The notes: generated from the letters alone by a model not told the origin. Shown: positions 1-29,387, numbered from the stretch's first letter. The stretch: 29,908 bases of DNA from Escherichia coli (GCF_003334315.1 NZ_QOWR01000056.1); one strand, 5' to 3'. A program made the numbers and translations.

Positions 1-149
1 GGTTGAGAAGCGGTGTAAGTGAACTGCAGTTGCCATGTTTTACGGCAGTGAGAGCAGAGATAGCGCTGATGTCCGGCGGTGCTTTTGCCGTTACGCACCA
101 CCCCGTCAGTAGCTGAACAGGAGGGACAGCTGATAGAAACAGAAGCCAC
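1..149 (-). CDS. insA: IS1 InsA N-terminal part (partial, runs off the window)
   Basis: GTG start at 147..149 on the minus strand; translation [49 protein letters not shown] matches the InsA N-terminus (zinc-finger CxxC...CxxC) from recall. Confidence 0.7.
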
Positions 150-204
150 TGGAGCACCTCAAAAACACCATCATACACTAAATCAGTAAGTTGGCATCAT
201 CACC
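1..204 (-). mobile_element. IS1 insertion sequence, left end (IRL plus start of insA), partial; continues beyond the window start
   Basis: Reverse complement of 1..204 matches the IS1 left end from recall (GGTGATG[A/C]TGCCAACTTACTGATTTAGTGTATGATGGTGTTTTTGAGGTGCTCCAGTGGCTTCT...), with one mismatch in the terminal inverted repeat. The bcsE reading frame changes character exactly at position 204/205. Confidence 0.85.
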
Positions 205-711
205 AAAAAGTGAACGGTATTCCTCAAGCAACAATGAAAATTGTTTATCGTTATTATTTCCGGGATTAATTACCAAAAGCGAACAATGGTTTAACCTGCT
301 CCATTTATTCATTTTATCCAACCATGAGCGAAGCCGCTCGGCAGGAATGTTTTGCCATGCGTTATTTGCGCAAACAAGAATAAAAAGGTAATTATGGGGA
401 TCAATAGAACACTGCAAATCACGGGTCAAATAGTATAGACCTTTTTCATGATTTAGCATTGAAAATAATTTTATTTTTTCCGGCCCTTGAGAATCATCTA
501 ATTGAAAGATTTTCGCCGGATCGCTGTCCATGCTAATGACCGCGACGTGTGCGGTTTCAGCCTGGGATGCAATTGTTTGATTCGCCAGACTGATAGCATC
601 TTCATGGCGATCGACGTTAAACCACCAGACGCCGCCTGCTGGCATATGTCGCAGCTCATCCCATAATGATGAGATACCGATAGAGAATACAGGGTCCACA
701 ATGTCCCTCAT
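205..711 (-). pseudogene. bcsE: bcsE 5' fragment (codons 1-169 of a ~523-codon gene) truncated by the IS1 insertion
   Basis: ATG at 709..711 on the minus strand; translation MRDIVDPVFSIGISSLWDELRHMPAGGVWWFNVDRHEDAISL...EEYRSLF matches the BcsE N-terminus. The six-frame ORF 178..711 continues 8 codons into IS1 (GDDANLLI) and then stops. Confidence 0.8.
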
Positions 712-983: not shown

Positions 984-1172
984 ATGAATAACAATGAACC
1001 AGATACTCTGCCTGATCCCGCGATAGGCTATATCTTCCAGAATGATATTGTGGCGTTAAAGCAGGCATTTTCACTGCCTGATATTGATTATGCCGATATT
1101 TCCCAACGCGAACAGTTGGCCGCGGCATTAAAACGCTGGCCGTTGCTGGCAGAGTTTGCGCAACAAAAGTAG
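984..1172 (+). CDS. bcsR: Cellulose biosynthesis protein BcsR (YhjR), 62 aa
   Basis: ORF 984..1172, translation MNNNEPDTLPDPAIGYIFQNDIVALKQAFSLPDIDYADISQREQLAAALKRWPLLAEFAQQK; sits immediately upstream of bcsQ, divergent from bcsE. Confidence 0.85.
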   Translation: MNNNEPDTLPDPAIGYIFQNDIVALKQAFSLPDIDYADISQREQLAAALKRWPLLAEFAQQK

Positions 1173-1183
1173 GGGATTGGTGA

Positions 1184-1936
1184 ATGGCCGTACTGGGATT
1201 GCAGGGGGTGCGGGGAGGCGTGGGGACAACAACCATCACCGCCGCATTAGCCTGGTCATTACAAATGTTGGGAGAAAATGTTCTGGTGGTCGATGCCTGC
1301 CCGGACAACTTGTTGCGCCTGTCATTTAATGTTGATTTTACCCACCGTCAGGGCTGGGCCAGAGCGATGCTGGATGGCCAGGACTGGCGTGACGCTGGGT
1401 TGCGCTACACCTCGCAGCTCGATTTGCTGCCTTTTGGTCAGTTATCCATTGAAGAACAAGAAAATCCACAGCACTGGCAAACCCGGCTGAGCGATATTTG
1501 CTCCGGCTTACAGCAACTAAAAGCCAGCGGGCGTTACCAGTGGATTTTAATCGACTTACCGCGTGATGCCTCGCAGATAACCCACCAGCTGCTGAGTTTG
1601 TGCGATCACTCGCTGGCAATCGTCAATGTGGATGCCAACTGCCATATCCGACTGCATCAGCAAGCGCTGCCGGATGGCGCACATATTTTGATTAATGACT
1701 TCCGTATTGGCAGTCAGGTTCAGGACGATATTTACCAGCTTTGGTTGCAAAGCCAGCGCCGATTGCTGCCGATGCTCATTCATCGTGATGAAGCGATGGC
1801 TGAATGCCTGGCGGCTAAGCAACCAGTCGGTGAATACCGCAGTGATGCGCTGGCGGCTGAAGAGATACTGACGCTGGCGAACTGGTGCCTGTTGAACTAC
1901 TCCGGGCTGAAAACGCCAGTCGGGAGTGCATCATGA
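1184..1936 (+). CDS. bcsQ: Cellulose synthase operon protein BcsQ, ParA/MinD-family ATPase, 250 aa, intact
   Basis: ORF 1184..1936; deviant Walker A GVRGGVGTTT near the N-terminus. Codon 6 is TTG (Leu), not the TAG reported for K-12. Stop overlaps the bcsA start (ATGA). Confidence 0.9.
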   Translation: MAVLGLQGVRGGVGTTTITAALAWSLQMLGENVLVVDACPDNLLRLSFNVDFTHRQGWARAMLDGQDWRDAGLRYTSQLDLLPFGQLSIEEQENPQHWQTRLSDICSGLQQLKASGRYQWILIDLPRDASQITHQLLSLCDHSLAIVNVDANCHIRLHQQALPDGAHILINDFRIGSQVQDDIYQLWLQSQRRLLPMLIHRDEAMAECLAAKQPVGEYRSDALAAEEILTLANWCLLNYSGLKTPVGSAS

Positions 1937-4551
1937 GTATCCTGACCCGGTGGTTGCTTATCCCGCCGGTCAACGCGCGGCTTATCGGGCGTTATCGCGA
2001 TTATCGTCGTCACGGTGCGTCGGCTTTCAGCGCGACGCTCGGCTGTTTCTGGATGATCCTGGCCTGGATTTTTATTCCGCTGGAGCACCCGCGCTGGCAG
2101 CGTATTCGCGCAGAACATAAAAACCTGTATCCGCATATCAACGCCTCGCGTCCGCGTCCGCTGGACCCGGTCCGTTATCTCATTCAAACATGCTGGTTAT
2201 TGATCGGTGCATCGCGCAAAGAAACGCCGAAACCGCGCAGGCGGGCATTTTCAGGTCTGCAAAATATTCGTGGACGTTACCATCAATGGATGAACGAGCT
2301 GCCTGAGCGCGTTAGCCATAAAACACAGCATCTTGATGAGAAAAAAGAGCTCGGTCATTTGAGTGCCGGGGCGCGGCGGTTGATCCTCGGTATCATCGTC
2401 ACCTTCTCGCTGATTCTGGCGTTAATCTGCGTTACTCAACCGTTTAACCCGCTGGCGCAGTTTATCTTCCTGATGCTGCTGTGGGGTGTAGCGCTGATCG
2501 TACGGCGGATGCCGGGGCGCTTCTCGGCGCTAATGTTGATTGTGCTGTCGCTGACCGTTTCTTGCCGTTATATCTGGTGGCGTTACACCTCTACGCTGAA
2601 CTGGGACGATCCGGTCAGCCTGGTGTGCGGGCTTATTCTGCTCTTCGCTGAAACGTACGCGTGGATTGTGCTGGTGCTCGGCTACTTCCAGGTAGTATGG
2701 CCGCTGAATCGTCAGCCGGTGCCATTGCCGAAAGATATGTCGCTGTGGCCGTCGGTGGATATCTTTGTCCCGACTTACAACGAAGATCTCAACGTGGTGA
2801 AAAATACTATTTACGCCTCGCTGGGTATCGACTGGCCGAAAGACAAGCTGAACATCTGGATCCTCGATGACGGCGGTAGGGAAGAGTTTCGCCAGTTTGC
2901 GCAAAACGTGGGGGTGAAATATATCGCCCGTACCACTCATGAACATGCGAAAGCGGGCAACATCAACAATGCGCTGAAATATGCCAAAGGCGAGTTCGTG
3001 TCGATTTTCGACTGCGACCACGTACCAACGCGATCGTTCCTGCAAATGACCATGGGCTGGTTCCTGAAAGAGAAACAGCTGGCGATGATGCAGACTCCAC
3101 ACCACTTCTTCTCGCCGGACCCGTTTGAACGCAACCTGGGGCGTTTTCGTAAAACACCGAACGAAGGCACGCTGTTCTATGGTCTGGTGCAGGATGGCAA
3201 CGATATGTGGGACGCCACTTTCTTCTGCGGTTCCTGTGCGGTGATTCGTCGTAAGCCGCTGGATGAAATTGGCGGCATTGCTGTCGAAACCGTGACTGAA
3301 GATGCGCATACTTCTCTGCGTTTGCACCGTCGTGGCTATACCTCCGCGTATATGCGTATTCCGCAGGCGGCGGGGCTGGCGACCGAAAGTCTGTCGGCGC
3401 ATATCGGTCAGCGTATTCGCTGGGCGCGCGGGATGGTACAAATCTTTCGTCTCGATAACCCGCTCACCGGTAAAGGACTGAAGTTTGCTCAGCGGCTGTG
3501 CTACGTCAACGCCATGTTCCACTTCTTGTCGGGCATTCCACGGCTGATCTTCCTGACTGCGCCGCTGGCGTTCCTGCTGCTTCATGCCTACATCATCTAT
3601 GCGCCAGCGTTGATGATCGCCCTATTCGTGCTGCCGCATATGATCCATGCCAGCCTGACCAACTCCAAGATCCAGGGCAAATATCGCCACTCTTTCTGGA
3701 GTGAAATCTACGAAACGGTGCTGGCGTGGTATATCGCACCACCGACGCTGGTGGCGCTGATTAACCCGCACAAAGGCAAATTTAACGTCACCGCCAAAGG
3801 TGGACTGGTGGAAGAAGAGTACGTCGACTGGGTGATCTCGCGGCCCTACATCTTCCTTGTCCTGCTCAACCTGGTGGGCGTTGCGGTAGGCATCTGGCGC
3901 TACTTCTATGGCCCGCCAACCGAGATGCTCACCGTGGTCGTCAGTATGGTGTGGGTGTTCTACAACCTGATTGTTCTTGGCGGCGCAGTTGCGGTATCGG
4001 TAGAAAGCAAACAGGTACGCCGATCGCACCGCGTGGAGATGACGATGCCCGCGGCAATTGCCCGCGAAGATGGTCACCTCTTCTCGTGTACCGTTCAGGA
4101 TTTCTCCGACGGTGGTTTGGGGATCAAGATCAACGGTCAGGCGCAGATTCTGGAAGGGCAGAAAGTGAATCTGTTGCTTAAACGCGGTCAGCAGGAATAC
4201 GTCTTCCCGACCCAGGTGGCGCGCGTGATGGGTAATGAAGTTGGGCTGAAATTAATGCCGCTCACCACCCAGCAACATATCGATTTTGTGCAGTGTACGT
4301 TTGCCCGTGCGGATACATGGGCGCTCTGGCAGGACAGCTACCCGGAAGATAAGCCGCTGGAAAGTCTGCTGGATATTCTGAAGCTCGGCTTCCGTGGCTA
4401 CCGCCATCTGGCGGAGTTTGCGCCTTCTTCGGTGAAGGGCATATTCCGTGTGCTGACTTCTCTGGTTTCCTGGGTTGTATCGTTTATTCCGCGCCGCCCG
4501 GAGCGGAGCGAAACGGCACAACCATCGGATCAGGCTTTGGCTCAACAATGA
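1933..4551 (+). CDS. bcsA: Cellulose synthase catalytic subunit BcsA (GT2 glycosyltransferase with C-terminal PilZ domain), 872 aa
   Basis: ATG at 1933 (MSILTRWLL...) inside the longer six-frame ORF 1885..4551. GT2 motifs visible (DDG, DCD, TED, QRIRW) and PilZ c-di-GMP motifs RRSHR and DFSDGG. Length matches the K-12 protein from recall. Confidence 0.95.
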   Translation: MSILTRWLLIPPVNARLIGRYRDYRRHGASAFSATLGCFWMILAWIFIPLEHPRWQRIRAEHKNLYPHINASRPRPLDPVRYLIQTCWLLIGASRKETPKPRRRAFSGLQNIRGRYHQWMNELPERVSHKTQHLDEKKELGHLSAGARRLILGIIVTFSLILALICVTQPFNPLAQFIFLMLLWGVALIVRRMPGRFSALMLIVLSLTVSCRYIWWRYTSTLNWDDPVSLVCGLILLFAETYAWIVLVLGYFQVVWPLNRQPVPLPKDMSLWPSVDIFVPTYNEDLNVVKNTIYASLGIDWPKDKLNIWILDDGGREEFRQFAQNVGVKYIARTTHEHAKAGNINNALKYAKGEFVSIFDCDHVPTRSFLQMTMGWFLKEKQLAMMQTPHHFFSPDPFERNLGRFRKTPNEGTLFYGLVQDGNDMWDATFFCGSCAVIRRKPLDEIGGIAVETVTEDAHTSLRLHRRGYTSAYMRIPQAAGLATESLSAHIGQRIRWARGMVQIFRLDNPLTGKGLKFAQRLCYVNAMFHFLSGIPRLIFLTAPLAFLLLHAYIIYAPALMIALFVLPHMIHASLTNSKIQGKYRHSFWSEIYETVLAWYIAPPTLVALINPHKGKFNVTAKGGLVEEEYVDWVISRPYIFLVLLNLVGVAVGIWRYFYGPPTEMLTVVVSMVWVFYNLIVLGGAVAVSVESKQVRRSHRVEMTMPAAIAREDGHLFSCTVQDFSDGGLGIKINGQAQILEGQKVNLLLKRGQQEYVFPTQVARVMGNEVGLKLMPLTTQQHIDFVQCTFARADTWALWQDSYPEDKPLESLLDILKLGFRGYRHLAEFAPSSVKGIFRVLTSLVSWVVSFIPRRPERSETAQPSDQALAQQ

Positions 4552-4561
4552 TGATAACGCG

Positions 4562-6901
4562 ATGAAAAGAAAACTATTCTGGATTTGTGCAGTGGCTATG
4601 GGGATGAGTGCGTTCCCCTCTTTCATGACGCAGGCGACGCCAGCAACGCAACCACTGATCAATGCTGAGCCAGCTGTAGCCGCCCAGACGGAACAAAATC
4701 CGCAGGTGGGGCAAGTGATGCCGGGCGTGCAGGGCGCTGATGCGCCAGTCGTGGCGCAGAACGGTCCTTCGCGTGATGTGAAGCTGACCTTTGCGCAAAT
4801 TGCACCGCCGCCGGGCAGCATGGTGCTACGTGGCATTAACCCGAACGGCAGCATTGAGTTTGGTATGCGCAGCGATGAAGTGGTGACGAAGGCGATGCTC
4901 AACCTCGAATACACCCCATCGCCATCGTTACTGCCTGTCCAGTCGCAGTTAAAGGTTTATCTCAATGATGAACTGATGGGCGTGCTGCCAGTGACCAAAG
5001 AACAGTTGGGTAAAAAAACGCTGGCGCAAATGCCCATTAACCCACTGTTTATTACCGACTTCAACCGTGTACGGCTGGAGTTTGTCGGCCATTATCAGGA
5101 CGTGTGCGAAAACCCGGCCAGCACCACGCTTTGGCTGGATGTTGGGCGGAGCAGTGGACTGGATCTGACCTATCAGACCCTGAATGTGAAGAATGACCTG
5201 TCACACTTCCCGGTGCCATTCTTTGACCCGCGCGATAACCGTACTAACACCTTGCCGATGGTCTTTGCGGGTGCGCCGGATGTTGGGCTGCAACAAGCCT
5301 CTGCCATTGTCGCCTCGTGGTTTGGTTCGCGTTCTGGCTGGCGTGGGCAGAACTTCCCGGTGCTCTATAACCAACTGCCGGATCGTAATGCCATTGTCTT
5401 TGCAACCAACGACAAACGGCCGGACTTCCTGCGCGATCATCCGGCGGTAAAAGCCCCGGTGATTGAGATGATTAACCATCCGCAGAATCCTTACGTCAAA
5501 CTGCTGGTGGTGTTTGGTCGTGACGACAAAGACCTGTTGCAGGCAGCGAAAGGTATCGCTCAGGGTAACATTCTGTTCCGTGGTGAAAGCGTGGTAGTGA
5601 ATGAAGTGAAACCGCTGCTACCGCGTAAGCCGTACGATGCGCCGAACTGGGTACGTACCGATCGTCCGGTCACATTTGGCGAACTGAAAACCTATGAAGA
5701 ACAGTTACAATCCAGCGGTCTTGAGCCAGCAGCGATTAACGTTTCGCTAAACCTGCCGCCGGATCTCTACCTGATGCGCAGTACCGGCATTGATATGGAT
5801 ATTAATTACCGCTACACCATGCCGCCGGTGAAAGACAGTTCGCGGATGGATATCAGCCTGAATAACCAGTTCCTGCAATCCTTCAACCTGAGCAGCAAAC
5901 AGGAGGCGAACCGCCTGCTGCTGCGGATTCCGGTATTACAAGGTTTGCTGGATGGCAAAACAGATGTCTCTATTCCGGCGCTGAAACTGGGCGCGACCAA
6001 CCAGCTGCGCTTCGACTTTGAGTATATGAACCCGATGCCGGGCGGTTCGGTGGATAACTGTATTACCTTCCAGCCGGTGCAGAATCATGTGGTGATTGGT
6101 GACGACTCCACCATCGACTTCTCGAAGTATTACCACTTCATCCCGATGCCGGATCTACGCGCCTTTGCTAACGCGGGCTTCCCATTCAGCCGGATGGCGG
6201 ATCTGTCGCAAACCATCACCGTGATGCCGAAAGCGCCTAACGAAGCACAGATGGAAACGTTGCTGAATACTGTTGGTTTTATCGGCGCACAGACGGGCTT
6301 CCCGGCGATTAATCTGACGGTGACCGATGATGGCAGCACCATTCAGGGCAAAGATGCCGACATCATGATCATCGGTGGTATCCCGGACAAACTGAAAGAC
6401 GATAAGCAGATCGACCTATTGGTGCAGGCGACCGAAAGCTGGGTGAAAACACCGATGCGCCAGACCCCGTTCCCCGGCATTGTGCCGGACGAGAGCGATC
6501 GCGCGGCAGAAACCCGGTCAACGCTGACCTCTTCCGGTGCGATGGCGGCGGTGATTGGCTTCCAGTCGCCGTATAACGACCAGCGCAGCGTGATTGCGCT
6601 GTTGGCAGATAGCCCACGCGGTTATGAAATGCTTAACGATGCGGTGAACGATAGCGGCAAACGCGCCACCATGTTCGGTTCGGTCGCGGTGATCCGCGAG
6701 TCCGGTATCAACAGCCTACGTGTTGGCGACGTTTATTACGTAGGTCATCTGCCGTGGTTCGAGCGCGTGTGGTATGCGCTGGCAAACCATCCGATTCTGC
6801 TGGCGGTGCTGGCGGCTATCAGTGTGATATTGCTGGCATGGGTACTGTGGCGTCTGCTGCGAATTATTAGTCGTCGTCGTCTTAACCCGGATAACGAGTA
6901 A
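4562..6901 (+). CDS. bcsB: Cellulose synthase periplasmic subunit BcsB, 779 aa
   Basis: ATG at 4562 (MKRKLFWICAVAMGMSAFPSFMTQA..., signal-peptide-like) inside six-frame ORF 4475..6901; C-terminal hydrophobic anchor; 10 bp after the bcsA stop. Confidence 0.95.
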   Translation: MKRKLFWICAVAMGMSAFPSFMTQATPATQPLINAEPAVAAQTEQNPQVGQVMPGVQGADAPVVAQNGPSRDVKLTFAQIAPPPGSMVLRGINPNGSIEFGMRSDEVVTKAMLNLEYTPSPSLLPVQSQLKVYLNDELMGVLPVTKEQLGKKTLAQMPINPLFITDFNRVRLEFVGHYQDVCENPASTTLWLDVGRSSGLDLTYQTLNVKNDLSHFPVPFFDPRDNRTNTLPMVFAGAPDVGLQQASAIVASWFGSRSGWRGQNFPVLYNQLPDRNAIVFATNDKRPDFLRDHPAVKAPVIEMINHPQNPYVKLLVVFGRDDKDLLQAAKGIAQGNILFRGESVVVNEVKPLLPRKPYDAPNWVRTDRPVTFGELKTYEEQLQSSGLEPAAINVSLNLPPDLYLMRSTGIDMDINYRYTMPPVKDSSRMDISLNNQFLQSFNLSSKQEANRLLLRIPVLQGLLDGKTDVSIPALKLGATNQLRFDFEYMNPMPGGSVDNCITFQPVQNHVVIGDDSTIDFSKYYHFIPMPDLRAFANAGFPFSRMADLSQTITVMPKAPNEAQMETLLNTVGFIGAQTGFPAINLTVTDDGSTIQGKDADIMIIGGIPDKLKDDKQIDLLVQATESWVKTPMRQTPFPGIVPDESDRAAETRSTLTSSGAMAAVIGFQSPYNDQRSVIALLADSPRGYEMLNDAVNDSGKRATMFGSVAVIRESGINSLRVGDVYYVGHLPWFERVWYALANHPILLAVLAAISVILLAWVLWRLLRIISRRRLNPDNE

Positions 6902-6907
6902 TTGAAG

Positions 6908-8014
6908 ATGAATGTGTTGCGTAGTGGAATCGTGACGATGCTGCTGCTGGCTGCCTTTAGTGTTCAGGCAGCCTGTACCTGGCCTGCCTGGGAGCAGTTT
7001 AAAAAGGATTACATCAGTCAGGAAGGGCGCGTCATCGACCCCAGCGACGCGCGCAAAATCACCACCTCCGAAGGGCAAAGTTACGGTATGTTCTTTGCCC
7101 TGGCGGCTAACGACCGTGCAGCTTTCGATAATATTCTCGACTGGACGCAGAACAATCTCGCTCAGGGTTCTTTAAAAGAAGGTTTGCCCGCCTGGCTGTG
7201 GGGTAAGAAAGAGAACAGTAAGTGGGAAGTGCTGGACAGCAATTCGGCCTCCGATGGTGATGTCTGGATGGCCTGGTCATTGCTGGAGGCGGGGCGTTTG
7301 TGGAAAGAGCAGCGTTATACCGACATCGGCAGCGCGTTGCTAAAACGTATCGCGCGGGAGGAAGTGGTGACGGTGCCTGGGCTGGGTTCCATGTTGTTAC
7401 CGGGCAAAGTGGGTTTTGCTGAGGATAACAGCTGGCGTTTTAACCCCAGCTACCTGCCGCCGACGCTGGCGCAGTATTTCACCCGCTTTGGCGCGCCGTG
7501 GACTACGCTGCGCGAAACCAATCAACGTTTATTGCTGGAAACCGCCCCGAAAGGCTTTTCGCCAGACTGGGTGCGCTATGAGAAAGACAAAGGCTGGCAG
7601 CTAAAAGCCGAAAAAACATTGATCAGCAGCTACGACGCTATCCGCGTTTACATGTGGGTAGGCATGATGCCTGACAGCGATCCGCAAAAAGCGCGGATGC
7701 TCAACCGGTTTAAACCGATGGCGACATTCACTGAGAAAAACGGTTATCCGCCGGAAAAAGTGGATGTGGCTACGGGGAAAGCGCAGGGTAAAGGACCGGT
7801 CGGTTTTTCTGCCGCCATGCTGCCTTTTTTACAAAACCGCGATGCGCAGGCCGTTCAGCGCCAGCGCGTGGCCGATAACTTTCCCGGCAGCGATGCCTAT
7901 TACAACTATGTGCTGACCCTGTTTGGACAAGGCTGGGATCAACACCGTTTCCGCTTCTCGACAAAAGGTGAGTTATTACCTGACTGGGGCCAGGAATGCG
8001 TAAATTCACACTAA
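6908..8014 (+). CDS. bcsZ: Endo-1,4-beta-glucanase BcsZ (GH8 family), 368 aa
   Basis: ATG at 6908 ([21 protein letters not shown], signal peptide); the track ORF starts 2 codons earlier at a TTG. Length matches K-12 BcsZ from recall. Confidence 0.9.
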
Positions 8015-11000
8015 ACATATTCACACTTTCCCTCGGTCTGGCCGTCATGCCGATGGTCGAGGCAGCACCAACCGCTCAGCAACAGTTGCTGGAGCAAGTT
8101 CGGTTAGGTGAAGCGACCCATCGTGAAGATCTGGTGCAACAGTCGTTATATCGGCTGGAACTTATTGATCCGAATAACCCGGACGTCGTTGCCGCCCGTT
8201 TCCGTTCTTTGTTACGTCAGGGCGATATTGATGGCGCGCAAAAACAGCTCGATCGGCTGTCTCAGTTAGCGCCGAGTTCAAATGCGTATAAATCGTCGCG
8301 GACTACGATGCTACTTTCCACGCCGGATGGTCGTCAGGCACTGCAACAGGCAAGATTGCAGGCGACTACCGGTCATGCGGAAGAAGCTGTGGCGAGTTAC
8401 AACAAACTGTTCAACGGTGCGCCGCCGGAAGGTGACATTGCTGTCGAGTACTGGAGTACGGTGGCGAAAATTCCGGCTCGCCGTGGCGAAGCGATCAATC
8501 AGTTAAAACGCATCAATGCGGATGCACCGGGCAACACGGGCCTGCAAAACAATCTGGCGCTATTGCTGTTTAGTAGCGATCGGCGTGACGAAGGCTTTGC
8601 CGTTCTGGAACAAATGGCGAAATCGAACGCCGGACGCGAGGGGGCCTCTAAAATCTGGTACGGGCAGATTAAAGACATGCCCGTCAGCGATGCCAGTGTG
8701 TCGGCGCTGAAAAAATATCTTTCGATCTTTAGCGATGGCGATAGCGTGGCGGCTGCACAATCGCAACTGGCAGAACAGCAAAAACAGCTGGCCGACCCTG
8801 CTTTCCGCGCTCGTGCGCAAGGTTTAGCGGCGGTGGACTCTGGTATGGCGGGTAAAGCCATTCCCGAACTACAACAGGCAGTGCGGGCGAACCCGAAAGA
8901 CAGTGAGGCTCTGGGGGCGCTGGGCCAGGCATATTCACAGAAAGGCGATCGCGCCAATGCAGTGGCGAATCTGGAAAAAGCCCTCGCACTGGACCCGCAC
9001 AGCAGCAACAACGACAAATGGAACAGTCTGCTGAAAGTAAACCGCTACTGGCTGGCGATCCAGCAGGGCGATGCTGCGCTGAAAGCCAATAATCCTGACC
9101 GGGCAGAACGCCTGTTCCAGCAGGCGCGTAATGTCGATAACACCGACAGTTATGCAGTGCTGGGGCTGGGCGATGTGGCGATGGCGCGCAAAGATTACCC
9201 CGCCGCTGAACGCTATTATCAGCAGACCCTGCGGATGGACAGCGGCAACACTAACGCCGTGCGCGGGCTGGCGAATATTTATCGCCAGCAGTCGCCAGAA
9301 AAAGCTGAAGCGTTTATCGCCTCGCTCTCTGCCAGCCAGCGGCGCAGCATTGATGATATCGAACGCAGCCTGCAAAACGACCGTCTGGCACAGCAGGCAG
9401 AGGCACTGGAAAACCAGGGCAAATGGGCGCAGGCGGCAGCACTTCAGCGGCAACGACTGGCGCTGGACCCCGGCAGCGTATGGATTACTTACCGACTTTC
9501 GCAGGATCTCTGGCAGGCCGGACAACGCAGCCAGGCTGATACGTTAATGCGCAATCTGGCGCAGCAGAAGCCGAATGACCCGGAGCAGGTTTACGCTTAC
9601 GGGCTGTATCTCTCTGGTCATGACCAGGACAGAGCGGCGCTGGCGCATATCAACAGCCTGCCGCGCGCGCAGTGGAACAACAATATTCAGGAGCTGGTTA
9701 ATCGCCTGCAAAGCGATCAGGTGCTGGAAACCGCTAATCGCCTGCGAGAAAGCGGCAAAGAAGCTGAAGCGGAAGCGATGCTGCGCCAGCAACCGCCCTC
9801 CACGCGTATTGACCTCACGCTGGCTGACTGGGCGCAGCAGCGACGTGATTACACCGCCGCCCGCGCTGCATATCAGAATGTCCTGACGCGGGAGCCAACT
9901 AACGCCGATGCCATTCTGGGGCTGACGGAAGTGGATATTGCTGCCGGTGACACAGCGGCAGCACGTAGCCAGCTGGCGAAACTGCCCGCTACCGATAACG
10001 CCTCGCTGAACACACAGCGGCGCGTGGCGCTGGCACAGGCACAGCTTGGAGATACCGCAGCGGCGCAGCAGACGTTTAATAAGTTGATCCCGCAGGCAAA
10101 ATCTCAGCCACCGTCGATGGAAAGCGCGATGGTGCTGCGCGACGGTGCGAAGTTTGAAGCGCAGGCGGGCGATCCAAAGCAGGCGCTGGAAACCTACAAA
10201 GACGCTATGGTCGCATCCGGTGTGACTACGACGCGTCCGCAGGATAACGACACCTTTACCCGACTGACCCGTAACGACGAGAAAGATGACTGGCTGAAAC
10301 GCGGCGTGCGCAGCGATGCGGCGGACCTCTATCGCCAGCAGGATCTTAACGTCACCCTTGAGCATGATTATTGGGGATCGAGCGGCACCGGTGGTTACTC
10401 CGATCTGAAAGCGCACACCACTATGTTGCAGGTGGACGCGCCGTATTCTGACGGGCGGATGTTCTTTCGCAGTGATTTCGTCAATATGAACGTCGGCAGT
10501 TTCTCCACGAATGCCGATGGCAAATGGGATGACAACTGGGGCACCTGTACATTACAGGACTGTAGCGGCAACCGCAGCCAGTCGGATTCCGGTGCCAGCG
10601 TGGCGGTCGGCTGGCGAAATGACGTCTGGAGCTGGGATATCGGCACCACGCCGATGGGCTTCAACGTGGTGGATGTGGTCGGCGGCATCAGTTACAGCGA
10701 TGATATCGGGCCGCTGGGTTACACCGTTAACGCCCACCGTCGGCCCATCTCCAGTTCTTTGCTGGCCTTTGGTGGGCAAAAAGACTCCCCGAGTAATACC
10801 GGGAAAAAATGGGGCGGTGTGCGTGCGGACGGCGTGGGGCTAAGCCTGAGCTACGATAAAGGTGAAGCAAACGGCGTCTGGGCATCGCTTAGTGGCGACC
10901 AGTTAACCGGTAAAAATGTCGAAGATAACTGGCGCGTGCGCTGGATGACGGGCTATTACTATAAGGTCATTAACCAGAACAATCGCCGCGTCACAATCGG

Positions 11001-11469
11001 CCTGAACAACATGATCTGGCATTACGACAAAGATCTGAGTGACTACTCACTCGGTCAGGGCGGTTACTACAGTCCGCAGGAATACCTGTCGTTTGCCATA
11101 CCGGTGATGTGGCGGGAGCGCACGGAAAACTGGTCGTGGGAGCTGGGTGCGTCTGGCTCGTGGTCGCATTCACGCACCAAAACCATGCCGCGTTATCCGC
11201 TGATGAATCTGATCCCGACCGACTGGCAGGAAGAAGCTGCGCGGCAATCCAACGATGGCGGCAGCAGTCAGGGCTTCGGCTACACGGCGCGGGCATTACT
11301 TGAACGACGTGTTACTTCCAACTGGTTTGTTGGCACGGCAATTGATATCCAGCAGGCGAAAGATTACGCACCCAGCCATTTCCTGCTCTACGTACGTTAT
11401 TCCGCCGCCGGATGGCAGGGTGACATGGATTTACCGCCGCAGCCGCTGATACCTTACGCCGACTGGTAA
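7996..11469 (+). CDS. bcsC: Cellulose synthase outer-membrane/TPR subunit BcsC, 1157 aa
   Basis: ORF 7996..11469 with AGGA Shine-Dalgarno; signal peptide, Ala/Leu/Gln-rich TPR-like N-terminal two thirds and a Gly/Ser/Trp/Tyr-rich beta-barrel-like C-terminus; overlaps the bcsZ 3' end by 19 nt. Confidence 0.9.
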
Positions 11470-11550: not shown

Positions 11551-13539
11551 TTGCGCGTAAGTCGCTCGTTAACAATCAAGCAGATGGCAATGGTGGCAGC
11601 CGTTGTCCTGGTGTTCGTTTTTATTTTTTGCACCGTTTTGCTGTTCCATCTGGTCCAGCAGAATCGCTATAACACGGCTACGCAACTGGAAAGCATTGCT
11701 CGCTCTGTCCGCGAACCCTTATCTTCAGCTATTTTGAAAGGCGATATTCCCGAAGCGGAAGCTATTCTTGCCAGCATTAAACCGGCAGGCGTGGTCAGCC
11801 GTGCCGATGTAGTGCTGCCTAACCAGTTCCAGGCGCTGCGTAAAAGTTTTATTCCAGAGCGCCCGGTGCCGGTAATGGTTACTCGCCTGTTTGAGCTACC
11901 GGTTCAAATCTCGCTGGGCGTTTACTCGCTCGAACGTCCGGCAAACCCGCAGCCAATTGCCTATCTGGTACTACAGGCGGATTCCTTCCGTATGTATAAG
12001 TTCGTGATGAGCACCCTCTCAACGTTAGTGACCATTTACTTACTTTTGTCGCTTATCCTGACCGTCGCCATCAGCTGGTGCATTAACCGCCTGATTTTGC
12101 ATCCGTTACGCAATATTGCTCGCGAACTTAACGCCATCCCAGCCAAGGAGCTTGTTGGTCACCAACTGGCATTACCGCGTCTGCATCAGGACGATGAAAT
12201 CGGTATGTTGGTGCGCAGTTACAACCTCAACCAGCAATTGCTGCAGCGCCATTATGAAGAACAGAACGAAAATGCGATGCGCTTCCCGGTGTCGGATTTG
12301 CCGAACAAAGCCTTGCTGATGGAGATGCTGGAGCAGGTTGTCGCGCGTAAACAAACCACCGCGCTGATGATCATCACCTGTGAAACCCTGCGTGATACTG
12401 CGGGCGTGCTGAAAGAGGCGCAACGAGAAATTCTGCTGCTGACGCTGGTGGAAAAACTCAAATCGGTACTGTCGCCACGTATGATCCTCGCGCAGATTAG
12501 CGGTTATGACTTTGCTGTCATTGCCAACGGTGTACAGGAACCGTGGCACGCAATCACCTTAGGTCAGCAAGTGCTCACTATCATGAGCGAGCGCCTGCCG
12601 ATTGAACGTATTCAACTCCGTCCGCACTGTAGCATTGGCGTGGCGATGTTCTACGGCGATCTCACCGCCGAACAGCTTTACAGTCGCGCTATTTCTGCGG
12701 CATTTACCGCTCGCCATAAAGGCAAGAATCAGATTCAGTTCTTTGATCCGCAGCAGATGGAAGCCGCCCAGAAGCGGTTGACGGAAGAGAGCGATATCCT
12801 TAATGCACTGGAAAATCATCAGTTTGCTATTTGGTTACAGCCACAGGTCGAGATGACCAGCGGAAAACTGGTCAGTGCGGAAGTGTTACTGCGTATCCAG
12901 CAACCGGATGGCAGTTGGGACCTGCCGGATGGCTTAATCGATCGCATTGAGTGCTGTGGGCTGATGGTTACCGTCGGTCACTGGGTGCTGGAAGAGTCCT
13001 GTCGATTGCTTGCAGCCTGGCAAGAGCGCGGCATTATGCTGCCCTTGTCGGTAAACCTCTCTGCGCTGCAACTGATGCACCCAAATATGGTGGCGGATAT
13101 GCTGGAACTGTTAACCCGCTATCGCATTCAGCCGGGAACACTGATTCTGGAAGTGACAGAAAGCCGACGTATTGACGACCCTCATGCTGCGGTGGCAATC
13201 CTCCGTCCGCTGCGCAATGCCGGAGTTCGGGTGGCGCTGGATGATTTCGGCATGGGCTACGCAGGGCTGCGTCAGCTGCAGCATATGAAATCGTTGCCAA
13301 TCGACGTACTGAAAATCGACAAAATGTTTGTTGAAGGCTTGCCGGGAGATAGCAGCATGATTGCTGCAATTATCATGCTGGCGCAGAGCCTGAACTTACA
13401 AATGATTGCCGAAGGCGTGGAGACTGAAGCACAACGCGACTGGCTGGCAAAAGCGGGCGTTGGTATTGCCCAGGGCTTCCTTTTTGCTCGCCCACTCCCT
13501 ATTGAAATCTTCGAAGAGAGTTACCTGGAAGAAAAGTAG
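11551..13539 (+). CDS. pdeK: c-di-GMP phosphodiesterase PdeK (YhjK): transmembrane/HAMP, degenerate GGDEF and EAL domains
   Basis: ORF 11551..13539 from a TTG start preceded by GGGGGGAGA; an alternative ATG lies at 11584. Degenerate GGDEF-position motif SGYDF and EAL-position motif EVL visible in the translation. Confidence 0.8.
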
Positions 13540-13564
13540 CTACCCCAAACTGATTACAAAACTT

Positions 13565-13618
13565 TAAAAAGTGCTGGTTTGTGCGAGCCAGCTCAAACTT
13601 TTTAACCTTTTTGTTTCA
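13565..13618 (+). terminator. Imperfect extended palindrome plus T-rich tract between pdeK and dctA; candidate pdeK terminator and/or dctA upstream regulatory site (CRP-like TGTGC-N6-GCTCA)
   Basis: ttaaaaagt-gctgg-tttgtgcga-gccagc-tcaa-actttttaa, followed by cctttttgtttc. Both readings are inference. Confidence 0.3.
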
Positions 13619-13685
13619 ATTATGATCCAGGTACATTTCTGTGATGTTGTCTGGGTGTTATTTTAAGGCCGCAGGTACCCCATAA

Positions 13686-15008
<1,323 letters not shown>

Positions 15009-15021
15009 TCTCATCACTTAT

Positions 15022-15109
15022 GCCCGCACTCCCTTCCCCGAGTGCGGGTGTTTGCGCATAATTGACCCCTGTGCCTGAACTTACCACCTGGGTGAGTTCA
15101 GGTTTATTT
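15022..15109 (+). terminator. Two tandem stem-loops downstream of dctA; the second is a strong intrinsic-terminator candidate
   Basis: Hairpin 1 at 15022..15049 (gcccgcactc / gagtgcgggt, 8-nt loop). Hairpin 2 at 15074..15102 (cctgaacttacc / ggtgagttcagg, about 12 bp) followed by tttattt. Confidence 0.5.
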
Positions 15110-15228
15110 CACTTCTTCCGTGACATTTTCATGTTCTTGCGGTCTAACACGAAGTGTTTTTAACGTCATTTAGACTGACCGACAACGGGCAGTTTTTTTA
15201 TTACCAGGATAGTTGATCAGGGGTTCAC

Positions 15229-16725
15229 ATGCAGGGCACAAAAATTCGACTTTTAGCGGGCGGTTTGCTGATGATGGCCACTGCTGGCTATGTGCAGGCA
15301 GATGCGCTCCAGCCTGATCCAGCATGGCAACAGGGGACGCTTTCCAACGGTTTACAGTGGCAAGTGCTGACCACCCCCCAGCGTCCCAGCGATCGTGTTG
15401 AAATTCGCCTGCTGGTTAATACCGGTTCGCTCGCCGAAAGTACACAACAGAGCGGTTACAGTCACGCCATCCCTCGTATTGCGCTAACGCAAAGCGGTGG
15501 CCTTGACGCAGCACAGGCGCGTTCATTGTGGCAGCAGGGGATCGACCCTAAACGCCCGATGCCGCCGGTAATTGTCTCTTATGACACCACGCTGTTTAAT
15601 CTGAGTTTGCCCAATAACCGTAACGATTTGCTGAAAGAAGCGCTCTCTTATCTGGCAAATGCCACTGGCAAATTGACCATCACACCAGAAACCATCAACC
15701 ACGCGCTGCAAAGTCAGGACATGGTGGCAACCTGGCCTGCCGATACTAAAGAGGGCTGGTGGCGCTATCGTCTGAAAGGGTCAACCTTGTTAGGTCACGA
15801 TCCTGCCGATCCGCTGAAACAACCCGTTGAAGCGGAAAAAATTAAAGATTTCTATCAGAAATGGTACACCCCGGATGCAATGACGCTACTGGTGGTGGGA
15901 AACGTGGATGCGCGCTCGGTTGTCGACCAAATAAACAAAACGTTTGGCGAACTGAAAGGCAAACGTGAAACGCCAGCTCCGGTGCCGACGCTTTCTCCGC
16001 TGCGTGCGGAAGCGGTGAGTATTATGACTGACGCGGTGCGTCAGGACCGGTTATCTATCATGTGGGATACGCCGTGGCAGCCGATTCGTGAATCAGCCGC
16101 ACTGCTGCGCTACTGGCGTGCGGACCTGGCCCGCGAGGCGCTGTTCTGGCATGTTCAGCAAGCGTTAAGCGCCAGTAACAGCAAAGACATCGGTCTTGGA
16201 TTTGACTGCCGTGTGCTGTATCTGCGTGCGCAGTGTGCCATCAACATCGAATCACCAAACGACAAGCTGAACAGCAACCTTAATCTGGTGGCGCGTGAAC
16301 TGGCGAAGGTTCGCGATAAAGGTCTGCCGGAAGAAGAGTTCAATGCGTTAGTGGCGCAAAAGAAACTGGAGCTGCAGAAACTGTTTGCCGCCTATGCACG
16401 AGCTGATACCGATATTCTGATGGGTCAGCGGATGCGTTCGTTGCAAAATCAGGTTGTCGATATCGCGCCGGAGCAATATCAGAAACTGCGGCAGGATTTC
16501 CTTAATAGCCTGACGGTAGAGATGTTAAATCAGGATCTGCGTCAACAGTTGTCGAATGATATGGCGTTAATACTGCTGCAGCCGAAAGGCGAGCCGGAAT
16601 TTAACATGAAAGCGTTGCAGGCGGTCTGGGATCAAATCATGGCCCCATCTACCGCCGCTGCGACCACCTCTGTCGCCACGGATGACGTACATCCTGAAGT
16701 GACGGATATTCCACCTGCACAGTAA
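15229..16725 (+). CDS. yhjJ: YhjJ, periplasmic M16-family (pitrilysin-like) protein, 498 aa
   Basis: ORF 15229..16725 with signal peptide MQGTKIRLLAGGLLMMATAGYVQA; identified from recall of K-12 YhjJ. No HxxEH zinc motif in the translation. Confidence 0.9.
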   Translation: MQGTKIRLLAGGLLMMATAGYVQADALQPDPAWQQGTLSNGLQWQVLTTPQRPSDRVEIRLLVNTGSLAESTQQSGYSHAIPRIALTQSGGLDAAQARSLWQQGIDPKRPMPPVIVSYDTTLFNLSLPNNRNDLLKEALSYLANATGKLTITPETINHALQSQDMVATWPADTKEGWWRYRLKGSTLLGHDPADPLKQPVEAEKIKDFYQKWYTPDAMTLLVVGNVDARSVVDQINKTFGELKGKRETPAPVPTLSPLRAEAVSIMTDAVRQDRLSIMWDTPWQPIRESAALLRYWRADLAREALFWHVQQALSASNSKDIGLGFDCRVLYLRAQCAINIESPNDKLNSNLNLVARELAKVRDKGLPEEEFNALVAQKKLELQKLFAAYARADTDILMGQRMRSLQNQVVDIAPEQYQKLRQDFLNSLTVEMLNQDLRQQLSNDMALILLQPKGEPEFNMKALQAVWDQIMAPSTAAATTSVATDDVHPEVTDIPPAQ

Positions 16726-16726
16726 T

Positions 16727-16766
16727 GCCTGATGGTGATGAGTTAGCACAACCATCAGGTATTTAT
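16727..16766. terminator. Stem-loop between convergent yhjJ and kdgK, possible shared terminator
   Basis: cctgatggt ... accatcagg, 9-bp stem with 14-nt loop, followed by tatttat. Confidence 0.35.
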
Positions 16767-16820
16767 GGATGAGCTGGATAGAGGGGTAACACTTTATCCA
16801 GCCTTTTGCATATGCTGCGT

Positions 16821-17750
16821 TTACGCTGGCATCGCCTCACGCGGGATAATCGCGCCGCGATACTGAATAACGGTACTTGCGGTCAGGTGCCCACGTTTCG
16901 CCGCGTCTTCCGCGCTGCCGCCTGTCAGACGTACCGCCAGATAACCGGCACTGAAAGAGTCGCCAGCTGCGGTGGTATCGATCACTTTTTCTTTCGGCAG
17001 TTTCACCGCCGGAACATCCACTAACCCTTCGCCAGCAATGGACACCAGGCAAGAATCCGCCCCGCGTTTCACCACCACTTCTTTCACGCCCGCGTTATGG
17101 GTGCGCGCAATGACGTCTTCCACCGGCTGTTGACCCCACAGCGCGTCTTCGTCGTCCAGCGTCAGGAAGGCGATATCCGTGCATTCCAGCATTTGTTGGT
17201 ACACCTGCTGTGTCTCTTCTTTGCTGGCCCACAGGCGCGGACGATAGTTATTGTCGAAAATCACTTTTCCGCCGTTGGCGCGGCATTCGCGCAGCAGGGA
17301 AAGCAGCTTTTCGCGGCTGGTCGGGCTTAAGATCGCCAGGCTAATCCCGCTCAGGTAGAGATAATCGAAATTCGCCAGCTCTTCGCAAATCGCCGCAGAC
17401 TGCTCACTCTCCAGCCAGAATTTGGCGGCGGCTTCGTTCCGCCAGTAGTAGAACGTACGCTCGCCGGTGCTGTCGGTTTCAATGTAGTAAAGGCCCGGCA
17501 GACGGTTTTCCATCCGTTGGGTCAGGGAAGTATCAACGTTCTCGCCGTGCCAGGCGTCCAGCATCTGCTGGCTAAAACTGTCCGTTCCCAGCGCCGTTAC
17601 GTAATGAACGGTTAATGCCGCAGGATCGACCTGACGGGCGATATAGACGGAAGTGTTCAGGGTATCGCCGCCGAAACCGCGCTTAACGTCCGCGCCTTTC
17701 TCGGAAAGCTCAATCATGCATTCGCCAATCACGGCAATCTTTTTGGACAT
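16821..17750 (-). CDS. kdgK: 2-dehydro-3-deoxygluconokinase KdgK (PfkB family), 309 aa
   Basis: ATG at 17748..17750 on the minus strand (MSKKIAVIGECMIELSEKG...), within the longer track ORF 16821..18098; length matches K-12 KdgK from recall. Confidence 0.9.
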   Translation of the reverse strand: MSKKIAVIGECMIELSEKGADVKRGFGGDTLNTSVYIARQVDPAALTVHYVTALGTDSFSQQMLDAWHGENVDTSLTQRMENRLPGLYYIETDSTGERTFYYWRNEAAAKFWLESEQSAAICEELANFDYLYLSGISLAILSPTSREKLLSLLRECRANGGKVIFDNNYRPRLWASKEETQQVYQQMLECTDIAFLTLDDEDALWGQQPVEDVIARTHNAGVKEVVVKRGADSCLVSIAGEGLVDVPAVKLPKEKVIDTTAAGDSFSAGYLAVRLTGGSAEDAAKRGHLTASTVIQYRGAIIPREAMPA

Positions 17751-17816
17751 AGTCGTGAACCTGATCTGTAAAAAATTAGCGTTAGTTTGCGCTGTGGTGG
17801 TTTGCTGGTCAACCAT

Positions 17817-17835
17817 ATTAAAACAGTGTTCCATT
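17817..17835. promoter_or_regulatory. Candidate KdgR operator upstream of kdgK
   Basis: attaaaacagtgttccatt matches the remembered KdgR box AATRAAAYRNYRTTTYATT at about 16 of 18 defined positions; 67-85 bp upstream of the kdgK ATG. Confidence 0.4.
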
Positions 17836-17906
17836 ATTTTTTTGAGCCAGAACGTATTCCTGAAAGATTCCGTTGTGGAGTGAGGAAATTTACCCCGGCC
17901 AGGCGG

Positions 17907-17933
17907 TAAAGTTCTGCCCTTACGCGCCGATAA
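17907..17933 (+). promoter_or_regulatory. Sigma28 (FliA) class 3 flagellar promoter for pdeH
   Basis: TAAAGTTC - 11 nt - GCCGATAA, essentially the sigma28 consensus (TAAAGTTT-N11-GCCGATAA), about 50 bp upstream of the pdeH ATG. Confidence 0.7.
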
Positions 17934-17981
17934 TCTTTGTCGAGTCCGGGCAGCATCACTTTTAAACACAGGACATCTTTG

Positions 17982-18749
17982 ATGATAAGGCAGGTTATCC
18001 AGCGAATAAGCAACCCTGAAGCAAGCATCGAGAGCTTGCAGGAACGGCGTTTTTGGTTGCAGTGTGAGCGTGCTTACACCTGGCAGCCGATCTATCAAAC
18101 ATGCGGGCGGTTAATGGCCGTGGAGCTATTAACGGTGGTCACGCATCCCTTGAACCCTTCGCAACGCCTGCCGCCGGATCGCTATTTTACTGAAATCACC
18201 GTCAGCCATCGGATGGAGGTTGTGAAAGAGCAGATTGATTTGCTGGCGCAAAAAGCCGACTTCTTTATAGAGCACGGCCTGCTGGCATCGGTCAATATTG
18301 ATGGCCCTACGCTCATCGCCCTGCGTCAGCAACCAAAAATCCTGCGCCAGATTGAGCGTCTTCCCTGGCTGCGTTTCGAACTGGTGGAGCATATCCGTCT
18401 GCCGAAAGATTCAACCTTTGCCTCGATGTGTGAATTTGGCCCGCTGTGGCTGGATGATTTTGGTACCGGGATGGCAAATTTCTCTGCGCTAAGTGAAGTG
18501 CGTTATGACTACATCAAAATCGCGCGAGAACTGTTTGTGATGCTGCGTCAGTCGCCGGAAGGACGCACACTCTTTTCTCAGCTTTTACATCTAATGAATC
18601 GCTATTGTCGCGGGGTGATTGTCGAGGGCGTAGAAACGCCGGAAGAGTGGCGTGATGTTCAGAACTCGCCCGCATTCGCCGCACAAGGCTGGTTTCTTTC
18701 ACGCCCGGCACCGATAGAAACGCTGAATACGGCGGTTCTGGCGCTATAA
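17982..18749 (+). CDS. pdeH: c-di-GMP phosphodiesterase PdeH (YhjH), EAL-only, 255 aa
   Basis: ATG at 17982 (MIRQVIQRISNPEASIESLQERRFWLQ...) inside track ORF 17937..18749; EAL-position motif ELL and DDFGTG motif visible. Confidence 0.9.
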   Translation: MIRQVIQRISNPEASIESLQERRFWLQCERAYTWQPIYQTCGRLMAVELLTVVTHPLNPSQRLPPDRYFTEITVSHRMEVVKEQIDLLAQKADFFIEHGLLASVNIDGPTLIALRQQPKILRQIERLPWLRFELVEHIRLPKDSTFASMCEFGPLWLDDFGTGMANFSALSEVRYDYIKIARELFVMLRQSPEGRTLFSQLLHLMNRYCRGVIVEGVETPEEWRDVQNSPAFAAQGWFLSRPAPIETLNTAVLAL

Positions 18750-18818
18750 GCTGCCTCATTTTCCGCCTGGCTGGACTATCTTTAGGACTGGCACAGGAAG
18801 AATATGAGGAAGCGAACG

Positions 18819-20879: not shown

Positions 20880-20882
20880 TGA

Positions 20883-20911
20883 TAATTGCCGGATGTCTGA
20901 CATCCGGCAAT
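20883..20911. terminator. Perfect 14-bp-arm palindrome immediately after the yhjG stop; candidate terminator or REP-derived hairpin
   Basis: aattgccggatgtc-t-gacatccggcaatt; no clear U-tract. Confidence 0.4.
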
Positions 20912-20950
20912 TAAACAGATTTAGATTGTTGGCAAAGTGTGCTTTGTTCA

Positions 20951-21047
20951 TGCCGGATGCGGCGTGAACGCCTTATCCGGCCTACAAATCCTTGCGAATT
21001 CAATATATTGTATGGAAATTCAGGCCTGATAAGCGTAGCGCATCAGG
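20951..21047. repeat. REP (repetitive extragenic palindromic) pair forming a BIME-like element between convergent yhjG and yhjE
   Basis: gccggatgcggcgtgaacgccttatccggcctac at 20951..20984 and inverted REP-like aggcctgataagcgtagcgcatcaggc at 21021..21047. Confidence 0.6.
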
Positions 21048-21060
21048 CTTTTCACTCTTA

Positions 21061-22383: not shown

Positions 22384-22695
22384 AATCTTTTCTTATTTTT
22401 TGGCTAACGAATAGCCATATTACGCACAGCAAAAGTGATATTTCAATGTGTAACAAATCGCGGAAATGGTCAAAAATCAGGCAAAAAGGGGATAATGTTT
22501 AGGCCAGTGATTTTTCTTCTATGAAATGCTTCACATAATTTTATAAATAGTGGATAAAACTGGTTTCAGGTTAAATAAAAGTTACCAACTGGATTTATAT
22601 GCTGGGGTTATGAGTTGGAATGAAATTGTTTGCTCCCAAATAGATGGCTGAAGAGGCTCTGGGGACGAGTTTCAAGAGGTTATGTGCGCATTATA

Positions 22696-22792
22696 GCCGG
22701 ATGCGATGCTGGCGCATCTTATCCGGCCTACGGGGAGCCAGGCCGAATAAAATCGTATGCCGGATAAGGCGTTTACGCCGCATCCGGCCTAT
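22696..22792. repeat. REP pair (BIME-like) between yhjD and yhjE
   Basis: gccggatgcgatgctggcgcatcttatccggcctac at 22696..22731 and inverted atgccggataaggcgtttacgccgcatccggcctat at 22757..22792. Confidence 0.6.
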
Positions 22793-22793
22793 T

Positions 22794-23807: not shown

Positions 23808-23855
23808 CCGCTCTTTTGTCCTTCTGTCGTGGTCATTCTTAAAAAGTATAGTCGG

Positions 23856-25877: not shown

Positions 25878-25886
25878 AGAGGATAA

Positions 25887-25924
25887 TTTTACAGCCAGCA
25901 GGAAGTTAGCGGCTGGCTGTAAAA
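25887..25924. terminator. 13-bp perfect inverted repeat between convergent yhjB and treF; possible bidirectional terminator
   Basis: ttttacagccagc - 12 nt - gctggctgtaaaa; the U/A tracts form the stem base rather than a trailing U-tract, so function is uncertain. Confidence 0.35.
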
Positions 25925-25927
25925 ATA

Positions 25928-27607
<1,680 letters not shown>

Positions 27608-29378: not shown

Positions 29379-29387
29379 TTAATTTGA

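Follow-up and report, generated by a model that had tools for sequence, protein, structure and literature searches.

Annotated starts, conserved tight junctions and plausible translational coupling in an Escherichia coli bcsRQABZC operon

Genes that overlap or nearly touch raise the question of whether their translation is linked, and the cellulose synthesis genes in the stretch of Escherichia coli DNA analysed here (29,908 nucleotides (nt), GCF_003334315.1 NZ_QOWR01000056.1, hereafter the window) raise it at every junction. An earlier note on this DNA had listed the overlaps and gaps from bcsQ to bcsC, had read the tight packing as a sign of co-translational stoichiometry control, and had taken the longer upstream starts offered for bcsA and bcsB as probable artefacts. 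The locus is likely to represent the standard E. coli-type (type II) bcsRQABZC operon, in which the annotated ATG codons are used and conserved tight junctions help initiation of the next gene. The coordinates and the view of the long starts were borne out, while stoichiometry control, in its simple form, was not.

The six genes were translated by a script on the window, and every open reading frame (ORF) listed is free of internal stops. Energies are those of the duplex between the Shine-Dalgarno (SD) sequence and the anti-SD, computed in the window and across all loci of the orthologue sample described below.

984..1172, plus strand: bcsR, first gene of the operon, 62 amino acids (aa); NCBIfam NF040717 (BcsR) at 75 bits; SD -5.7 kcal/mol.
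1184..1936, plus strand: bcsQ, 250 aa, intact; NCBIfam NF007460 matched over residues 1-250 of 250; SD -7.1 kcal/mol.
1933..4551, plus strand: bcsA, catalytic subunit of cellulose synthase, 872 aa; NCBIfam NF008558 matched over 1-872 of 872; PGAP start identical; PDB chains 7lby_A, 9b8v_E and 9fmv_A.
4562..6901, plus strand: bcsB, periplasmic subunit, 779 aa; NCBIfam NF008325 matched from residue 1.
6908..8014, plus strand: bcsZ, periplasmic endoglucanase, 368 aa; NCBIfam NF008305.
7996..11469, plus strand: bcsC, outer-membrane subunit with TPR, 1157 aa; NCBIfam NF008520 matched over 1-1157 of 1157.

All six Bcs proteins score above the curated NCBIfam cut-offs (five equivalogs and the BcsR model NF040717, which is of the kind 'exception'), and the matches of BcsQ, BcsA, BcsB and BcsC are full-length. 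The genes bcsR, bcsQ, bcsA, bcsB, bcsZ and bcsC follow one another in this order on one strand, which is the arrangement of a type II operon, and the RefSeq/PGAP annotation of a near-identical genome places the same ATG gene boundaries. Codon 6 of bcsQ is TTG (1199..1201), hence the gene is intact; K-12 has TAG at this position. The gene boundaries and the operon organisation are thus already known and annotated for this well-studied operon. Presumably it is read as one polycistronic mRNA. A single transcript would fit with the lack of promoter-like sites at the junctions and with spacers too short to hold a terminator plus a promoter: the search of the junctions found neither promoter-like sites nor terminators, and promoter-like sites within the operon are fewer than in shuffled sequences. 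No Rfam family matches anywhere in the window.

The junctions of this operon are all short. In the window, bcsR and bcsQ are separated by 11 nt (R/Q, +11) and bcsA and bcsB by 10 nt (A/B, +10, 4552..4561), while the other three are as follows.

1922..1936, plus strand: Q/A junction, with an SD-like GGGAG (1922..1926) inside bcsQ, a 6-nt spacer, and ATGA (1933..1936) in which the bcsA start and the bcsQ stop overlap (-4).
6902..6907, plus strand: B/Z spacer of 6 nt, TTGAAG (+6).
7986..8014, plus strand: Z/C junction, with SD-like GGGG (7986..7989) and AGGA (7992..7995) inside bcsZ.

The bcsC ATG begins at 7996 and the bcsZ stop codon occupies 8012..8014, so that the two genes overlap by 19 nt (-19, 7996..8014). 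Measured by script on the window sequence, the junction coordinates of the earlier note all proved correct.

How far these spacings are shared was assessed in 80 orthologous loci from Enterobacteriaceae (one genome per species, BcsA 74-99% identical), in which starts and stops were placed by tblastn and the junction distances were then measured; the denominators vary per junction. The Q/A overlap is -4 in 73 of 79 loci and the Z/C overlap -19 in 69 of 74. The A/B spacer is +10 in 61 of 81 loci and +13 in 12 more, where a CAA-to-TAA change ends bcsA a codon sooner without altering the register, and the B/Z spacer is +6 in 57/76. The R/Q junction is variable, ranging from -1 to +18, with +11 as its commonest value (38 of 76 loci). 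Among 2,987 unidirectional gene pairs of E. coli, 707 (24%) are spaced between -8 and +6 and 203 (7%) between +9 and +12, with -4 as the commonest distance (PMC10666635). Since each of these spacing classes is common, no junction is remarkable singly and the layout is an ordinary one; what goes beyond chance is the conservation of the spacings, not the spacings themselves. Comparison with orthologous operons, which the earlier note had proposed as a check, thus found the tight spacings conserved and the extended starts not. Beyond the sample, the annotated junctions of a Pseudoalteromonas bcs operon are 0, -11, -4, -1 and -10, those of Cereibacter are +5 (A/B) and -4 (B/Z), and the A/B junction of an Enterobacter ludwigii plasmid operon (p11894_1, L085) is -4. 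Judged by these gene coordinates, short gaps and overlaps appear to be an old conserved feature of bcs operons.

Several loci show irregular junctions or gene content. In three Mangrovibacter loci (L076, L078 and L080), R/Q, Q/A and B/Z are all -1 overlaps. The Klebsiella spallanzanii locus (L048) carries a 1.3-kb insertion (12623..13929) exactly between bcsA and bcsB, which places these genes 1,307 nt apart; the insertion holds two adjacent minus-strand ORFs of 135 and 236 aa that, by eye, resemble a split TnpB/OrfB-type gene (IS200/IS605 family) with a zinc-ribbon motif. No bcsZ match was found between bcsB and bcsC in locus L030, nor at the expected place in locus L067, and in Citrobacter koseri (L020) the Z/C region is irregular and the B/Z spacer is 13 nt long. 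On plasmids, 135 Escherichia records match BcsA, and seven among the matches listed carry a second, divergent bcsA (about 54% identical over residues 130-835). In E. coli plasmid pLR-62-2_1 (L084), a gene for a group II intron reverse transcriptase separates bcsB from bcsC, and genes with EAL and GGDEF domains lie upstream.

The initiation signals at the junctions differ from gene to gene. An SD of -5 kcal/mol or stronger precedes bcsQ in 99% of 76 orthologues, bcsA in 94% of 79 loci and bcsC in 80%, and each of these SDs is embedded in the upstream gene; in the window, the energies for bcsA and bcsC are -6.9 and -5.6 kcal/mol. The bcsZ SD is weak (median -3.3 kcal/mol). No SD precedes bcsB, for which the median energy is +0.5 kcal/mol and 96% of 81 loci give values weaker than -3. 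A makes up 47% of the initiation region of this gene, which is the most open of the six, with a median probability of being unpaired, over positions -15 to +12, of 0.58, compared with 0.42 at random positions and 0.39 at bcsA. Among four distant operons, the absence of the bcsB SD is mixed: the gene is SD-less and A-rich in the distant type II operon of Pseudoalteromonas, as in Enterobacteriaceae, its SD is weak on an E. coli plasmid (-1.4), and it is strong in Cereibacter (-9.5) and on the E. ludwigii plasmid (-12.6); four are too few to generalise.

Conserved RNA structure contributes little to this picture. RNAalifold on 32-36 diverse orthologues gave 0 pairs at Q/A, 2 at A/B and 5 at Z/C, without covariation (B/Z was not folded). 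Coupling through the unmasking of a hairpin is therefore not supported at these three junctions. A hairpin over the bcsA SD appears only in the fold of a single sequence and is specific to E. coli.

Taken together, co-directional genes whose stops and starts overlap or lie within a few nt (-4, +10, +6, -19 and +11), at conserved distances, make coupled translation across the bcs junctions plausible. Ribosomes finishing one gene would help to start the next via the short gaps and overlaps, in a manner that may differ between junctions. At bcsQ, bcsA and bcsC, the conserved embedded SD would correspond to the classic overlap, where reinitiation could be joined by de novo entry once translation of the upstream gene has opened the site. 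At bcsZ, a weak SD would serve a start that lies 6 nt after the bcsB stop. At bcsB, initiation would have to proceed without an SD, in a region that is A-rich, unstructured and invariant, with a double or triple stop 10 nt upstream. Two routes could lead to such a start: some ribosomes may be handed on from bcsA, and others may enter de novo, independently of an SD, on the open A-rich leader. De novo entry would be needed because about six BcsB are required per BcsA, as discussed below. Three results from the literature agree with coupling. Of 14 overlapping gene pairs tested in E. coli and Haloferax, 13 were strictly coupled (PMC6728339), the efficiency of coupling drops steeply with distance (PMC10666635), and BcsR and BcsQ depend on each other for folding (PMC7439463).

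The choice of start codons does not depend on the tight packing, as the annotated ATGs are supported by evidence independent of that argument. The longer starts are the product of an ORF rule that takes the first ATG, GTG or TTG after a stop.

1885..1887, plus strand: GTG, spurious start that would lengthen bcsA by 16 codons, within the bcsQ codons TGG TGC.
4475..4477, plus strand: TTG, spurious start that would lengthen bcsB by 29 codons.
6902, plus strand: TTG, spurious extension of bcsZ by 2 codons, absent from the earlier note; TTG occurs there in 5 of 76 loci.

That BcsA begins at GTG 1885, or BcsB at TTG 4475, or both, is extremely improbable. Both frames are open in the window, and a GTG stands at the position homologous to 1885 in 43 of 79 loci. 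This GTG, however, sits inside conserved bcsQ codons, which accounts for its partial conservation, and 11 of the 43 have a stop that closes the frame, leaving an equivalent that is present and open in 32 of 79 loci. The equivalent of TTG 4475 is present and open in 20 of 81 loci, and nine have a TAG at the same place. Any upstream in-frame start is missing in 26 of 79 orthologues for bcsA and in 26 of 81 for bcsB. Neither codon has an SD (-1.9 kcal/mol for GTG 1885 and -2.2 for TTG 4475, compared with the -6.9 of the bcsA ATG), and at least one upstream in-frame ATG, GTG or TTG is expected by chance with P = 0.70 over the 24 open codons before bcsA and P = 0.83 over the 35 before bcsB. The family models and RefSeq use the ATGs.

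The protein N-termini point in the same direction. Judged by eye, the ATGs of bcsB, bcsZ and bcsC open directly onto signal-peptide-like N-termini, and a start at TTG 4475 would bury that of BcsB; the BcsB constructs in the PDB start at residues 24-26. Signal peptidase is expected to remove the N-termini of all three proteins, in which case N-terminal proteomics, which the earlier note had suggested for confirming the start codons, could not settle the starts of bcsB, bcsZ and bcsC. The periodicity of substitutions in the extension regions gives a signal too weak to inform, and the in-frame stops of orthologues are the better test. The long starts that the ORF rule offers here can be discarded with confidence.

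The junction between bcsA and bcsB stands out by its nucleotides. A codon-aware scan of synonymous variation across the orthologues of the operon found the following constraint there, gene-wide shares being those among synonymous codons.

4539..4596, plus strand: A/B junction block, about 55 nt of near-invariant sequence that runs from the end of bcsA across its stop and into bcsB as far as codon ~11.
bcsA second-to-last codon: CAA in 71 of ~78 orthologues (gene-wide share 19%).
bcsA last codon: CAA in 69 of ~78 orthologues (gene-wide share 19%).
bcsB codon 3: AGA in 62 of 74 orthologues (gene-wide share 1%).
bcsB codon 6: TCC in 62 of 74 orthologues (gene-wide share 14%).
bcsB codon 10: GCA in 65 of 74 orthologues (gene-wide share 12%).

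The block reads, in order, bcsA GCT CAA CAA, the stops TGA TGA TAA, the spacer, the bcsB ATG at 4562, and AAA AGA AAA ... TGT GCA GTG GC. Three tandem in-frame stops (4549..4557) thus end bcsA, and the tandem TGATGA lies at -13..-8 from the bcsB ATG in the +10 and the +13 loci alike. Within bcsB, synonymous entropy is lowest over the first 10 codons (0.45-0.47, rank 1-2 of 770; gene mean 1.09), and the last ten codons of bcsA rank 8 of 863. Synonymous entropy is also at its lowest for bcsZ in the last windows of that gene, where constraint is expected as a result of dual coding with bcsC. In the three Mangrovibacter loci (about 12590..12631), bcsA runs in another frame through the same nucleotides (...GSTMMTMR*), reading the TGATGA as sense, and ends in an ATGA on the bcsB start; this change of frame indicates that the conservation at A/B concerns the nucleotides and not the peptide.

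Two further readings of the A/B block were considered and set aside. A relay through a mini-ORF (ATG ATG ATA ACG CGA TGA, 4548..4565), leading from the bcsA stop to the bcsB start via two ATGA motifs, is speculation only: the mini-ORF arises automatically from CAA-TGA-TGA and ATG-AAA and is therefore not independent evidence. A BcsA-BcsB fusion by +1 frameshifting was also rejected; no locus closes the bcsB frame within the 5 codons before its ATG, but no slippery or prfB-like motif was seen and nothing pointed to a fusion.

Whether coupling fixes the ratios of the Bcs subunits, as the earlier note had it, can be judged best for BcsA and BcsB, and the answer makes co-translational stoichiometry control improbable. 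In its favour, BcsR and BcsQ are interdependent: each is required for the folding of the other, and their co-expression yields an R2Q2 complex (PMC7439463), i.e. a ratio of 2:2. The E. coli macrocomplex, however, contains up to six BcsB per BcsA (PMC7840130), as in PDB 9b8v with one BcsA chain and six BcsB chains, and the A/B junction is as tight as the others. Passages of PMC7840130 and PMC11379886 term this ratio 'noncanonical' and 'biosynthetically expensive'. In Rhodobacter sphaeroides the ratio is 1:1 (PMC7840130), and A/B is equally tight in its relative Cereibacter. Reinitiation alone cannot exceed 1:1, so the excess of BcsB needs de novo initiation or an adjustment at the post-transcriptional or post-translational level, and the open, A-rich and SD-less leader is a candidate for de novo initiation at bcsB. 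Tight packing should thus not be assumed to mean stoichiometry control in this operon, as its best-characterised pair stands at 1:6. How such an excess arises from one mRNA is a testable question, and the bcsB leader, invariant and SD-less, is the natural starting point for it.

A rival account dispenses with functional coupling altogether and explains the layout by compaction and the inheritance of an old arrangement, with free 30S subunits initiating every gene independently. We regard it as unlikely, though it draws on real observations: the SDs of bcsR, bcsQ, bcsA and bcsC range from -5.6 to -7.1 kcal/mol, the open A-rich region of bcsB can support SD-independent de novo initiation, and such spacings are very common in E. 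coli. In some operons, moreover, the output of downstream genes is several-fold that of the genes before them, and de novo initiation is required for this (PMC6728339). The strict coupling of nearly all overlapping pairs tested experimentally speaks against this account, as do the weak bcsZ SD, the missing bcsB SD, and the spacing of Q/A and Z/C, which is far more conserved than that of R/Q. Several points nonetheless weigh against assisted initiation at the bcs junctions. The literature search found no transcript, ribosome-profiling or reporter data for bcs and no profiling numbers for bcsA and bcsB; on coupling in bcs it gave a single hit, which dealt with another gene. The SDs of bcsQ, bcsA and bcsC are adequate, and independent initiation is possible there. 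The nonsense codon at position 6 of K-12 bcsQ abolishes cellulose, with polarity and the loss of BcsQ left open as its cause (PMC5944007; PMC7397504). One plasmid-borne bcsA/bcsB pair of E. coli is 63 nt apart, and tight spacing is thus not obligatory for the family. The 1:6 complex of BcsA and BcsB shows that coupling does not set this ratio, and it is not obvious how selection for an open A-rich leader would fix every single synonymous site of the A/B block.

Tentatively, and at rather low probability, the A/B block might constitute a dedicated translation-control element, either an SD-independent enhancer that provides the roughly six-fold excess of BcsB or a sequence-specific docking site for a small RNA (sRNA) or Hfq, with RybB as one candidate, that tunes BcsB under envelope stress. 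The narrower proposal of a sequence-specific regulatory site, such as the target of a protein or of an Hfq-dependent sRNA like RybB, acting beyond an open leader, is more doubtful still. It would account for synonymous sites fixed far beyond gene-wide codon usage, and AAAAGAAAAC is an A-rich motif of the ARN type. For the sigma-E sRNA RybB, complementarity to the 5' end lies at GCAGUGGC (4589..4596, nt 1-8 of the sRNA) and at AAAGAAAA in bcsB codons 2-4 (4566..4573, nt 9-16), and the predicted duplex has an energy of -20.8 kcal/mol. This energy, however, ranks only about 310th of 5,962 tiles of the window (top ~5%), and the window holds five copies of the 8-mer. In 9 of 74 species a GCG at bcsB codon 11 disrupts the seed, and the rest of the block is still conserved there. 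The literature search turned up nothing linking RybB and bcsB, and the window contains no Rfam element. RybB pairing was therefore rejected as the cause of the A/B conservation: the complementarity is real, but it does not rise above background, and the block persists without the seed. The same 8-mer, GCAGUGGC, also occurs in the signal-peptide codons of ompA. The RybB sequence used maps to a near-single-copy locus between ybjL and rcdA in 5,419 of 5,426 genomes and matches Rfam RF00110 with 105 bits; the model starts 3 nt in, and the first three bases (GCC) rest on the genome sequence. Conserved junctions that assist initiation of the next gene remain the preferred explanation of the operon as a whole.

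Upstream of the operon, the locus is interrupted by an insertion sequence.

1..204: end of IS1; the window begins inside IS1, and the terminal repeat ends at 204.
205..711, minus strand: 5' fragment of bcsE, its first ~169 codons, cut by IS1.

As the window ends within IS1 before bcsF and bcsG are reached, only the bcsE fragment of the divergent bcsEFG operon is in view. In this strain IS1 probably disrupts that operon, which serves phosphoethanolamine (pEtN) modification and the full output of cellulose. The same insertion is found in the RefSeq record of strain NT1N31, where the IS1 transposase is flanked by two pseudogene halves of bcsE, and the IS1-bcsE junction is matched over the whole query in 12 of 5,426 complete E. 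coli genomes, in four of them as one contiguous match. Strain NT1N31 is otherwise near-identical, and its bcsQ is annotated as a pseudogene with an internal stop. Downstream of the operon, positions 11551..29908 are ordinary E. coli chromosome (hmsP/pdeK, dctA, yhjJ, kdgK, pdeH, yhjG, yhjE, yhjD, rcdB, yhjB, treF, ccp and the start of gadA), which several complete genomes match at 100% identity.

Compared with known systems, the locus has the six genes, the order, and the starts and stops of the type II operons of E. coli 1094, W3110/AR3110 and RefSeq, and it likewise diverges from bcsE. It differs from K-12 in its intact bcsQ, and from the standard type II locus in that bcsE is cut by IS1 at 204/205. 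The atpE gene uses an A/U-rich translational enhancer. The initiation region of bcsB, A-rich and unstructured, invites comparison but has no SD at all, and the analogy is only a functional one. The F-type ATPase operon (cited in PMC6728339) gives unequal output from one mRNA, and BcsB is likewise needed at about six per BcsA. Like the coupled pairs of the ATGA class tested by Huber et al. (2019, 2023; trpB-trpA is cited there), the Q/A junction has an ATGA overlap, with an SD inside the upstream gene, whereas Z/C is a longer overlap (-19). A/B, B/Z and R/Q fall within the short range of +2 to +14 nt in which reinitiation is still measurable, and bcsB departs from other genes with spacers of +9 to +12 in lacking the SD that is usual for them (PMC10666635).

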